Below, piece after piece: positions 18,420 to 23,258 of a stretch of DNA of 64,000 nt. The notes under the pieces are model-generated. The model did no database searches. It was not told where the DNA came from and saw only the letters and a program-made list of their open reading frames with translations. This DNA comes from Octopus vulgaris. Taxonomy: Eukaryota. The stretch covers positions 8,246,001 to 8,310,000 of the forward strand of contig OX597842.1 of the NCBI GenBank assembly GCA_951406725.2. Reading direction: 5' to 3'. The position numbers and the translations under genes were made by a program. The number at the start of each line of letters is the position of its first letter. Position 1 is the stretch's first letter.

Positions 18420-20157
18420 TGTTTTCATGTTTGCATTAACTATATATGTAGGTATGTACATATATGTATGTATATATGCATATATTTATATATTATTTAT
18501 ATTATTACATATATATATATATATATATATATATATATATATATATATATATATATATATATATATATATATATATATATATATATATATATACTTTATT
18601 TAAAGCATCAGAAAATTCAACAAAACCTGTTACTCTGAGTTACGGGAAACTCAGAGTAACAGGTTTTGTTGAATTTTCTGCTGCTTTAAATAAAGCATAT
18701 TACTCTACCATTGGTATTTGAGTACTCTTTTTTCCACCTTGTTTCATATTTATGTGTTTACTCCGGTATATATATATAAATATATATATATATATATATA
18801 TATACGTATGCATATATATATATATATATATATATATATATATATATATGGGTGTACACACACACACACACACGATAAGTAAGGAAGTATATATTTAATG
18901 GTATACCATACCAGCATTATATGATAGCACAAGGATAATATAGTGAAAGAGAAAGATTATAATAGATAAAAATTAAAGCGAAAAAGGGGGTTAAAATAAA
19001 AATAAAGTGTGCGTGTCATTTTGAGTGAATTTGGATACCAATAAAAAGGGAACTGGTAAAAATTTCATATAAATCATGAAAATTATGATATAATAATAAG
19101 AAATATCGTAAAGTAATTATAATGATAATTAAAAATAACTGGAAAATGGTTAGAAATAGTACAGTGTAAAGGAGTATAAAGGAGTATAAGGTGTGGAAAT
19201 GCAGTATAACAGGATACAGTATTATAGCAGGTATATATATATGACCACATACACACATATTAAATATTTATTAACATTATAATATAATTATACGAGCAAA
19301 ACGCCCCCCGTCCAATGGACGGTGCTGAGTTGTCAAACATTTAAACCAAATTTTCTCAAAACAACTTGTCCGACCGTCCCATAGGCCTCCCCTTTGAGAA
19401 ACACTGATGTATCCTTTAATACTTATATGCATGCTTGAATCTATGCATGTATGTATGAGTGTATATTATCTTGTGGGCATAAGTAAAATTAAGCACTCTC
19501 AGTACATATATTGGGAATCTTTGTAGAGGGTAATTTATCTAAAAATTCCTCGAAGACTTCTATTACTAGAAATAGAGCACCAATCATAAATAAGAGAAAA
19601 AGTATCGAGTTGAATAGCTTCATGCGGGCATACATCCTTCGGCGATGAATTTCATCCCTTCTCGTGCCTTCTTCCTTTTCTGGATACACTGTGAGCAAAT
19701 CCCGATAGCAACCAAATAGCATACGACATTCATGTTTGTTCTTGTAGCGGGCAATGGACATGAGGATAGCACTGAATACTGACACTGATGTCATCACCAA
19801 CGAATAACTGAGTAAATAGTCTGTAAAACAAAGGCAAAAGTAACATATGTATATATATTTATATAGGTTATGAGAGGTAATGATATGAATATGGCCGAAA
19901 GGTGTCAGGTAATCTCAAAATTGGGGAAGGGATTAAGTCGATGTAATCGACCCCAGTGCGTAACTGGTACTTATTTAATCGACCCCGAAAAGATGAAAGG
20001 CAAAGTCGGCCTCGGCGGAATTTGAACTCAGAACGTTGCGGCAGACGAAATACCTATTTCTTTACTACCCACAAGGCGCTAAACACAGAGGAGACCAACA
20101 AGGACAGACACCCAAATTAAGTCGATTATATCGACCCCACTGCGTAACTGGTATTTA
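18420..20157. repeat. ~1.7-kb recent duplication containing terminal exon B; partner ~21923-23528 contains exon A
   Basis: Co-linear near-identity from gttttcatgttt(g/c)attaactatatatgtagg to cgaccccactgcgtaactggtatt. Confidence 0.9.
19489..19820 (-). CDS. Cys-loop receptor terminal exon copy B (tail ...KLPSTKIPNICTESA*), candidate alternative last exon
   Basis: Same intact acceptor and phase, 332 nt, open frame, 10 aa differences from copy A. AATAAA on the minus strand at 19267-19272. Confidence 0.75.
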
Positions 20158-20535
20158 TGTAGGGCGGCGAGCTGGCAGAATCGTTAGCGCGCCGGGCGAA
20201 ATGCGCAGCAGTATTTCGTCTGTCGCTACGTTCTGAGTTCAAATTCCGCCGAGGTCGACTTTGCCTTTCATCCTTTCGGGGTCGATAAATTAAGTACCAG
20301 TTACGCACTGGGGTCGATATAATTGACTTAATCCGCTTGTCTGTCCTTGTTTGTCCCTTCTGTGTTTAGCCCCTTGTGGGTAGTAAAGAAATAGGTATTT
20401 ATATAATCGACCCTGAAAGGATGAAAGGCAAAGTCGATCTCGGCGGAATTTGAACTCAGAACGTAGCGGCAGACGAATTACCGCTAATCATTTCGCCCAG
20501 CGTGCTATCGTTTTTGCTGACTCGCCGCCTTCCAA
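19925..20535. mobile_element. Nested copies of tRNA-derived SINE family 3 (ggcggcgagctggcagaatcgttag...gcctttcatcctttcggggtcgataaattaagtaccag)
   Basis: A plus-strand copy at ~20163-20400 lies inside minus-strand copies. This is the same family as the 35301-36750 array. Confidence 0.75.
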
Positions 20536-20639
20536 AGGTGTCAGGTAATGCTGGGTAAGTGCTATGGATAGATCATAGTTAAGCTCCAGGATTGGTGTTT
20601 ATGCGAATAAGGAGTCCAGCGTAGGTCATATATCAGCAT

Positions 20640-21055
20640 ACTCTCTTTTACTCTCTCTTTTACTTGTTTCAGTCATTTGACTGCGGCCATGCTGGAGCAC
20701 CGCCTTTAGTCGAGCAAATCGACCCCGGGACTTATTCTTTGTAAGCCCAGTACTTATTCTATCGGTCTCTTTTGCCGAACCGCTAAGTGACGGGGACGTA
20801 TACACACCAGCATCGGTTGTCAAACGATGCTAGGGGGACAAACACAGACACACAAACACACACATACACACATATATATATATATACATATATACGACGG
20901 GCTTCTTTCAGTTTCCGTCTACCAAATCCACTCACAAGGCATTGGTCGGCCCGGGGCTATAGCAGAAGACACTTGCCCAAGATGCCACGCAGCGGGACTG
21001 AACCCGGAACCATGTGGTTGGTTAGCAAGCTACTTACCACAGAGCCACTCCTGCA
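20640..21055 (-). mobile_element. tRNA-derived SINE, family 1
   Basis: Reverse complement of 7781-8210. Confidence 0.85.
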
Positions 21056-22926
21056 TGTGTATATAGAAAATTTTATTCAGAATGAGATGAAAAAACCAAG
21101 GCTGTGAAGGTTTTAGAGCATTTATAAATAGAAGGCCTTACAGCTGTTTCTGGGATATTTTATATATCCCTTCATCGGAGACGGTGTGAGAATATGGTTA
21201 AGCAATAGTTAATTTAGATAAGATATGAAATAGAAAGTGAAGTGGAAGAATGAAAATAGATTTGAGATATGCAGGGATATTGCATTTGTAGATCCATTAT
21301 TTAGGCAGAATGGTATACACATAAGATTCCACTACCTTGTTAGTAAAATGCAAAAGTATTTAAATTTGGTCATTCCAAGTATAGAGTTTGTATACAGTGC
21401 TATTGAATCAAGGGTTTTATTTAAAGTGACCTAAAAGTAGGGAATGTATTTGTAAGGTCAAATCGAAAACAGGAAGAGAGGAATAAAGAAAAGAAAGAAA
21501 AAGAAAAATGAAAAACAAGAGAGATAATAAGGGAGAGTGTACCAGTTAGTGGTCAGTCAAGACAATTTGAAAGTAGGAATGGGGAGATGAGGGTGATAGA
21601 GAGAGAGAACAGTATCAGAGTGTAAAAATATAAAAGGAATGGGGGCAACAGAGAGAGAGAGAGAGAGAGAGAGAGGTATAATAATGTAAAAAGTAAAGGA
21701 GTGTCAGTTATGTAGTGATAGAGTCTAAGTGATGGGCAAAGAGAGGGGGAGTAATATGGAATGAAGAATTTCGGAATATAGATTAGGTGGTTGGACAGGT
21801 CAGTACTTAGTAGTAGAAGAAAGTATATATATGAAGATGTATACATAAGTATATGTTAGACATGTATATATATATATATTTATACGGAAGTTTATACATA
21901 TCAATATCTACGTCTACAACTCGTTTTCATGTTTGGATTAACTATATATGTAGGTATGTACATATATGTATGTATATATGCATATATTTATATATTATTT
22001 ATATTATTACATATATATATATATATACTTTATTTAAAGCAGCAGAAAATTCCACAAAACCTGTTACTCTGAGTTTCGCGTTGCCGTTCGTCGGACAGTT
22101 TTTGCTTTTACTCCGGTATATATATATATATATATATATATATATATATATATATATATATCATATATACATATATATATATATATATATATATATATAT
22201 ATATATATATATATATATATATATATATATATATATATATATATACGTATGCATATATATATATATATATATATATATATATATATATATGGGAGTACAC
22301 ACACACACACACGATAAGTAAGGAAGTATATATTTAATGGTATACCATACCAGCATTATATGATAGCACAAGGATAATATAGTGAAAGAGAAAGATTATA
22401 ATAGATAAAAATTAAAGCGAAAAAGGGGTTAAAATAAAAATAAAGTGTGGGTGTCATTTTGAGTGAATTTGGATACCAATAAAAAGGGAACTGGTAAAAA
22501 TTTCATATAAATCATGAAAATTATGATATATTAATAATAAATATCGTAAAGTAATTATAATGATAATTAAAAATAACTGGAAAATGGTTAGAAATAGTAC
22601 AGTGTAAAGGAGTATAAAGGAGTATAAGGTGTGGAAATGCAGTATAACAGGATACAGTATTATAGCAGGTATATATATATGACCACATACACACATATTA
22701 AATATTTATTAACATTATAATATAATTATACGAGCAAAACGCCTCCCGTCCAATGGACGGTGCTGAGTTGTCAAACATTTAAACCAAATTTTCTCAAAAC
22801 AACTTGTCCGACCGTCCCATAGGCCTCCCCTTTGAGAAACACTGATGTATCCTTTAATACTTATATGCATGCTTGAATCTATGCATGTATTTATGAGTGT
22901 ATATTATCTTGTGGGCATAAGTAAAA

Positions 22927-23258
22927 TTAATCACTCTCAGTACATATATTGGGAATCTTTGGAGAGGGAAATTTATCTAAAAATTCATCGAAGACTTTTA
23001 TTACTAGAAATGCAGCACCAATCATAAATAAGAGAAAAAGCATCGAGTTGAATAGCTTCATGCGGGCATACATCCTTCGGCGATGAATTTCATCCCTTCT
23101 CGTGCCTTCTTCCTTTTCTGGATACACTGTGAGCAAATCCCGATAGCAACCAAATAGCATACGACATTCATGTTTGTTCTTGTAGCGGGCAATGGCCATG
23201 AGGATAGCACTGAATACTGACACTGATGTCATCACCAACGAATAACTGAGTATATGGT
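22927..23258 (-). CDS. Cys-loop receptor terminal exon copy A (M3, short loop, M4, tail ...KFPSPKIPNICTESD*)
   Basis: Acceptor ttttgcctttgttttacag|AC completes T|AC (Tyr) from exon 5. Open to TAA, with two hydrophobic segments. The spliced product is 411 aa. AATAAA on the minus strand at 22705-22710. Confidence 0.9.

Follow-up and report, generated by a model that had tools for sequence, protein, structure and literature searches.

The window analysed here comprises 64,000 nt of Octopus vulgaris DNA (assembly GCA_951406725.2, contig OX597842.1, positions 8,246,001 to 8,310,000; all coordinates below are those of the window). It carries, on the minus strand, a gene for a nicotinic acetylcholine receptor (nAChR)-like protein whose last coding exon is present in three copies, termed A, B and C. 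The upstream exons were mapped by tblastn with XP_036369744.1 (P0001) of O. sinensis, the sole close full-length relative (97%). Exon 1 (55767..55848; 86%, GT donor) encodes the signal peptide and exon 2 (49425..49564; 89%) the start of the extracellular domain. They are followed by exon 3 (44245..44289; 45 nt, E 0.003) and exon 4 (33424..33533; 94%); exons 2 to 4 all have AG and GT ends. Exon 5 (28453..28979) encodes the Cys-loop, loop C, M1 and M2 and matches Pfam PF02931 (36 bits, cut-off 26) and PF02932 (33.3 bits, cut-off 28.1). Terminal exons A (19489..19820) and B (22927..23258, proximal to exon 5) are each 332 nt long and encode M3, a loop, M4, the tail and the stop, whereas copy C (9860..10197) has two extra residues. 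Splice sites were canonical for the five upstream exons and the terminal exon mapped with P0001, and the phase-1 donor of exon 5 is compatible with A, B and C. The six coding exons spread over 36–46 kb. In the 2.8-Gb genome, the upstream exons occur as one set and, of seven candidate terminal exons, exactly three were matches. Exon 5 gave a single strong match, the remaining 38 of 39 lying at 21–33%, and no further terminal exon was detected at low stringency in the 50 kb to the left or the 30 kb to the right of the window. A description of the locus was not found in the literature covered, from which most subscription papers and bioRxiv supplements were absent; a listing as 'AChR-like' is possible.

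Judged from its domains and predicted fold, the gene product is a Cys-loop, nAChR-like subunit of a pentameric channel. Cysteines C158 and C172, which delimit the C-x13-C loop, are conserved, and the top Foldseek matches to the predicted P0001 model (predicted local distance difference test score 86) were all nAChRs, with E values of about 1e-27. The model places helices at residues 236-259, 265-286, 300-327 and 353-396; M3 corresponds to 300-327, M4 lies within the long helix 353-396, and the tail, including the last 15 residues, is predicted to be disordered (codon n of the terminal exon is P0001 residue n+302). By alignment, the protein is not an acetylcholine-binding alpha subunit. Compared with the alpha-type O. 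sinensis protein P0267, it has lost the aromatic box (YNSA to ANSA, GSWIY to KSSIS, YTCCKEHY to HKCNRTGT, VWIEQEW to GILTLTW) and lacks the vicinal cysteines of loop C; the positions which we take to form the binding site are the Tyr of loop A, the Trp of loop B, the Tyr pair and vicinal Cys-Cys of loop C and the Trp of loop D. Retained is the Gly-Glu pair before M2 (PPESGEQISL aligned with PPDSGEKITL), which we take to be the cation-selectivity motif, and the channel is probably cation-selective. The subunit is possibly sensory in role. Loop C contains a single Cys in exon 5 (P0001 residue 217) and a Cys-x-Cys in O. bimaculoides, and the Cys at codon 105 of the terminal exon persists in all three copies while the tail around it changes; a disulfide between the loop C Cys and the near-C-terminal Cys is possible.

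Between copies A and B, 11 of 332 nt are different; they fall in 10 codons, all of them changed nonsynonymously and none synonymously (A/B residues Y/H, L/I, S/A, I/M, L/A with 2 nt, E/K, E/D, L/F, T/P and A/D); the alignment thus reproduced exactly what the first-pass annotation had listed. The changes lie at the ends of M3 (codons 1, 2 and 21), in M4 and its extension (codons 72-90) and in the tail (codons 96-109), with 8 of the 11 differences in codons 72-109 (P=0.012, for a boundary picked post hoc). The 3' flank of A (18866..19488, minus strand) is likely in part 3' untranslated region (UTR), and an AATAAA lies 217 nt past the stop, as it does in B. Over 622 aligned nt, this flank shows five substitutions and a single 1-nt indel between the copies, which agrees with the earlier estimate of about five differences in roughly 600 nt; in the upstream intron, four substitutions occur over 271 nt, along with two gaps of 63 nt and 1 nt. 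The non-coding A-B distance is about 1.0–1.2%. The claim that coding divergence exceeds flank divergence held up (Fisher P=0.0065 for the exon versus the 3' flank, P=0.009 versus both flanks). Over all non-coding sites, the coding excess had P values of 0.001–0.009; the pooled value of 0.001 counts 3 of 13 substitutions in the far 3' flank (about 150 nt) and excludes 10 that fall in a rearranged palindromic repeat, whereas the value of 0.009 is independent of this choice. The A/B case was chosen from a large scan, and these P values are therefore optimistic. In the far 3' flank of A, a near-perfect palindromic repeat at 18590-18700 is replaced in B (22030-22110) by another form of the same element, and this patch is the only strongly diverged non-coding stretch of the duplicated unit.

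The coding excess over non-coding DNA is real, whereas a ratio of nonsynonymous to synonymous change (dN/dS) above 1 is borderline when judged by synonymous sites. With 74 synonymous and 253 nonsynonymous sites in the exon, the probability of no synonymous change among 11 was 0.059, or 0.040 with kappa 2. As had been proposed, no copy is broken: all three have open frames in phase, intact acceptors and poly(A) signals, and the acceptor of B is identical to that of A.

Copy B is a recent insertion and copy C is older. The inserted unit (21925..23528, about 1.6 kb) is a copy of approximately 18423-20155, taking in the exon, its 3' flank and a portion of the intron, and it is bounded by 26-bp target-site duplications (21899..21924 and 23529..23554, plus strand) that form a perfect direct repeat and occur nowhere else in the 2.8-Gb genome. 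The upstream intron of A contains an array of repeats like short interspersed elements (SINEs; 19898..20549, plus strand) with its own 16-bp target duplication at 19898 and 20534. In unit B, the left 16-bp copy has gone with the 63-nt deletion and the unit stops short of the right one; since the A intron holds both ends and B neither, the A site is the parent and B the inserted copy. The same two ends ruled out a head-to-tail duplication followed by insertions. Two sources for the variants of B were also rejected: a whole-gene paralogue, because exon 5 has only one strong match, and block conversion by copy C, because sites at which B equals C alternate with sites at which A and B agree and C does not.

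Copy C differs from A at 34 coding positions (28.8 nonsynonymous and 5.2 synonymous), 26 of them within codons 78-109, which bears out the description of its changes as mostly nonsynonymous and focused on M4 and the tail; the contrast of pN 0.115 with pS 0.068 was not significant (P 0.15). Divergence is patchy, with 8 differences in the first 233 nt (3%), 26 in the last 96 coding nt (27%) and 5 in the next 30 nt (17%). Synonymous change alone repeats the contrast (1/54 in the front, about 4/21 in the tail, P=0.02). The 3% in the front against 27% in the tail suggests that C is an older copy whose front was recently homogenised. Its homology to A and B is limited to the exon and about 25 nt on either side. 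A mariner-like element (9272-9848; 93% to 39175-39752 and 62716-63137) abuts the 3' end of C and ends this homology, so that the 3' UTR and poly(A) site of C would be new; the hexamers downstream lie in or beyond the transposon and are not homologous to those of A.

Contigs from sequencing runs (Logan) were compared for 6 of 24 listed runs, organisms B and D being left out. Four of the runs were RNA-like and of low depth, none of the listed runs being on record as RNA. Contigs of this kind drop variants and cannot be assigned to one locus. Spliced contigs were found in two of the four RNA-like runs, one per run (X9 from organism C and X18 from organism A); each runs past 19820 into the end of exon 5, a join that bridges 5–9 kb. 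Both are mosaic and mostly A-like. The X9 contig and the DNA run X5, both from organism C, share 5 nucleotide differences from A, each of them nonsynonymous, and about 140 nt of flank show none (P=0.047). Organism C combines A-type Y1, L82 and T99 with B-type A21, M72, K87 and F96 and with N100 of the copy C type, and the intron in X5 is B-type. The X18 contig reads H1, V2 and A21, of which H1 and A21 are of B/C type, together with A-type I72, L82 and E87. Two pieces came from run X7: one departs from B at 9 positions, as would be expected of A, and the other, which is unspliced, at 5. In the DNA run X2 all three types were represented, with pieces of depth 22 for B, 10.5 for A and 15-16 for C; the run also gave a C-like R58/N48 path of depth 34 and a synonymous change at 19594 that is common to the B-type and C-type pieces and absent from the three copies of the assembly. 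Its C-type piece also carries M20V (at 19761), again absent from the assembly, so that copy C is polymorphic at a nonsynonymous site as well.

Because other animals carry such mixed combinations, the A/B differences are not fixed between the copies. In a four-gamete test on six haplotypes, 11 of 28 site pairs failed (9 without X18, 5 without C). Incompatible sites and patchy divergence make non-allelic gene conversion likely; recurrent mutation is also possible. When the A/B-type variants were pooled, 13 were nonsynonymous and 1 synonymous (P 0.10–0.14), so the dN/dS check advised in the first-pass annotation, counted by sites, did not give a value clearly above 1 (P 0.04–0.06 for A and B).

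The whole gene changes fast. Against P0001, 22 of 408 compared residues differ, each by a single base; 18 of these lie among the 299 residues of exons 1-5 and 4 among the 109 of exon A, the copy nearest to the annotated O. sinensis terminal exon. A canonical alpha exon compared with its O. sinensis match showed 0 of 179 residues different (P=0.0005, a single same-species control), three mismatches in that alignment being intron read-through and discounted; for a second canonical exon, the comparison with Argonauta gave 2 differences in 177 residues. By contrast, exon 5 shares 84% identity with its O. bimaculoides counterpart, M1 and most of M2 being the same. The terminal exon of that species was not found among proteins of fewer than 226 residues, where only an exon 5 fragment (P0005) appeared, lengths of 226-310 being outside the search. 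Since the single-copy upstream exons are as fast as exon A, rapid change is a property of the gene rather than of the duplication. At the exon 1/2 junction (55767-55775 and 49545-49564), 6 of 10 residues (25-34) differ from O. sinensis; this cluster, at the predicted mature N-terminus and outside the duplicated exon, is the densest change in the gene.

The earlier proposal of diversifying selection on used exons therefore stands in part: it is borne out by the coding excess and by a gene that is transcribed and fast-evolving, and it fails where A and B are seen as two used, mutually diversified exons, since their variants are mixed in other animals and the single-copy exons are equally fast. 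We favour, with a probability of roughly 0.55, a fast-evolving, polymorphic last exon with variants that move between copies and between alleles and are not fixed specialisations of alternative exons. Gene conversion or recombination would shuffle variants among A, B, C and their alleles. Templated repair or template switching would have produced copy B, with a divergent allele as the probable source, since the A-B non-coding distance matches the heterozygosity of 1.22% given for O. vulgaris in the accessible part of the report (10.1101/2023.05.16.540928). In the older copy C, the front would have been homogenised with A and B while M4 and the tail escaped. Selection on M4 and the tail is likely on the pattern of substitutions; positive or balancing, it may act on residues that tune lipid coupling, gating or assembly. 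The spare copies would serve at least as sequence donors, and they may be putative alternative last exons.

Several points weigh against this interpretation. A dN/dS above 1 by synonymous sites is not established (P 0.04–0.14), and, because exons 1-5 of O. sinensis were compared as protein only, the speed of the whole gene could reflect relaxed constraint. The mosaic haplotypes come from contigs that drop variants and have no assignable locus, and the X18 contig has a depth of 3.5 and four unlisted differences. Recurrent mutation likewise yields four-gamete failures, and the P0001 states were read from residues. With C as the outgroup, the excess of changes in A over B (7:2) was not significant (P=0.18). 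Finally, as far as the accessible text of one study goes (PMC9260303), M4 and post-M4 of the muscle nAChR tolerate mutation, M4 mutations tuning additively and post-M4 being dispensable; such data fit tuning and relaxation alike.

Among the alternatives, it is possible, although we think it unlikely, that A, B and C are alternative splicing partners of exon 5 and yield three subunit isoforms, each with its own M4 and tail sequence, under diversifying selection. The intact and in-phase copies would allow this, B having the acceptor and poly(A) hexamers of A in a position nearer to exon 5, and the frame of C having been kept through 34 substitutions with no indel (simulated chance of no stop 0.21) together with a 25-nt acceptor region that is conserved. 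In X18, the spliced contig begins with a B/C-type head, and salamander Nav1.4 provides a precedent in the part of its account that is accessible (10.1101/2021.03.25.437018). However, the pieces listed for the four RNA-like runs included no spliced contig with an exact match to B or C, although the low depth of these runs means that silence is not implied; a single contig covers the terminal exon in X9 and in X18, and the one O. sinensis protein found is A-like. The four-gamete result shows that the A/B differences are not copy-specific, and the DNA run of organism C gave one unbroken contig and no copy-C-type piece at 91% likeness.

A bolder extension, which we hold to be rather doubtful, would make the gene a second acetylcholine-insensitive sensory lineage, distinct from the chemotactile receptors (CRs). 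Three switchable last exons would vary the membrane-facing M4 and the tail, a divergent allele frozen beside its partner by duplication would let one chromosome express both balanced alleles, and conversion would go on producing new combinations that species share.

Slightly less credible still is that constraint was relaxed and chance did the rest, with M4 and the tail nearly free to change, B and C silent relics, the lack of synonymous change a small-sample fluctuation and conversion keeping the flanks alike. A probability of 0.04–0.06 for no synonymous change would permit this, as would the predicted disorder of the last 15 residues, a chance of 0.58 that 11 changes introduce no stop, and the finding, in the accessible part of PMC9260303, that post-M4 deletions hardly affect the muscle nAChR. 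Yet 11 changes were observed where 2.7–5.0 were expected (P 0.0001–0.013), a neutral rate cannot top the non-coding rate, and the pattern recurs between A and organism C (5 nonsynonymous changes, no other). An assembly artefact that set two alleles of a single locus in tandem as A and B is very improbable, for although their non-coding distance equals a typical allelic distance and organism C shows a single contig, B sits inside unique sequence between 26-mers found twice genome-wide, which a haplotype overlap would not create, and in the independent run X2 the A/B-type depth (26-33) is about twice that of the C type (15-16), contig depth being no true copy number.

Canonical octopus nAChRs are nearly frozen, and their known fast-evolving offshoot is the chemotactile receptor cluster. 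The gene described here is a separate orphan lineage, with about 5% residue change between sister species and an exon for M3, M4 and the tail that was duplicated twice. If selection is the cause, it is a candidate sensory or toxin-facing channel with adaptation on a lipid-facing helix, it offers natural M4 variants to test, and it would be a clear-cut example of exon duplication capturing an allele. The role of the lipid-facing M4 helix in Cys-loop gating is still debated. If a single copy is used and constraint merely relaxed, the locus amounts to a commonplace partial duplication within a rapidly evolving gene.

The remainder of the window is rich in repeats. Between A and C (12411-14668, minus strand) lies a 646-codon reverse-transcriptase-like frame followed by an endonuclease-like frame, presumably a Penelope-like element. 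Introns 3 and 4 contain head-to-tail SINE-like arrays at 35200-36800 and 29900-32800 (184 bp, up to 99-100% identity, and about 186 bp). Upstream of exon 1 (59050-62750, plus strand), a long 18-bp tandem array has open frames of Tyr-Asp-Gln-Ala-Cys-Ser-like repeats and, near its end, a 100-N gap.

The nAChR-like gene is not a chemotactile receptor, judged from its similarity scores and phylogenetic position. Features of the CRs were drawn from the accessible parts of a review (PMC11526382) and a preprint (10.1101/2025.10.28.685082) and from this genome. According to these, octopus CRs (CRT1; PDB 8eis, 9e6b; PMC11526382) resemble its product in being derived from nAChRs, about 400 residues long, devoid of acetylcholine-binding residues and fast-evolving. 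In this genome, however, each CR-like gene consists of one open frame (374-431 codons) and the genes form a cluster on contig C15, whereas the present gene has six exons and lies on contig C29. At 56.9-57.4 Mb of C15, the number of CR-like open frames with a single exon, each about 370-430 codons long, exceeds 20, and one of them (L008) matches CRT1 with an E value of 5e-134. P0001 matches CRT1 at 2e-25 and Torpedo beta at 7e-36, and it fell outside the C15 CR clade in a quick tree (support 84 at the deeper fork, with a long-branch warning); a position as sister to that clade is possible. Selection in CRs is reported, in the part of the review available, for the ligand pocket (PMC11526382), whereas much of the change here lies in M4, the tail and the N-terminus.

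The nearest known case is the pair of exons 26a/26b of salamander Nav1.4, with Drosophila Gr39a, the CRs and Alvinella Alpo4 as looser parallels. Alpo4 (PMC10338036) is likewise an isolated, long-branch orphan within the expanded, acetylcholine-insensitive set of lophotrochozoan nAChR-like channels, but it keeps the aromatic box that the octopus protein is without, and the accessible part of its account mentions no exon duplication. The Gr39a locus, as described in the available part of PMC2204066, also encodes receptors; it diversifies as exons are duplicated, gained and lost, and purifying selection is weaker in those that are duplicated. It belongs to an unrelated receptor family and splices large variable exons to three small conserved ones, whereas the variable part of the octopus gene is the last exon of a Cys-loop subunit. 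In salamander Nav1.4, as presented in the accessible portion of the preprint (10.1101/2021.03.25.437018), the terminal coding exon of an ion-channel gene has likewise been partially duplicated in tandem, with both copies open, many nonsynonymous differences, non-allelic gene conversion and positive selection on the terminal exon. There, both copies have been shown to be transcribed, the duplication is old and the agent, tetrodotoxin, is known; the octopus gene has three copies, one of them very recent and flanked by a target duplication, its variants are mosaic within and between species, and the use of B and C is putative.

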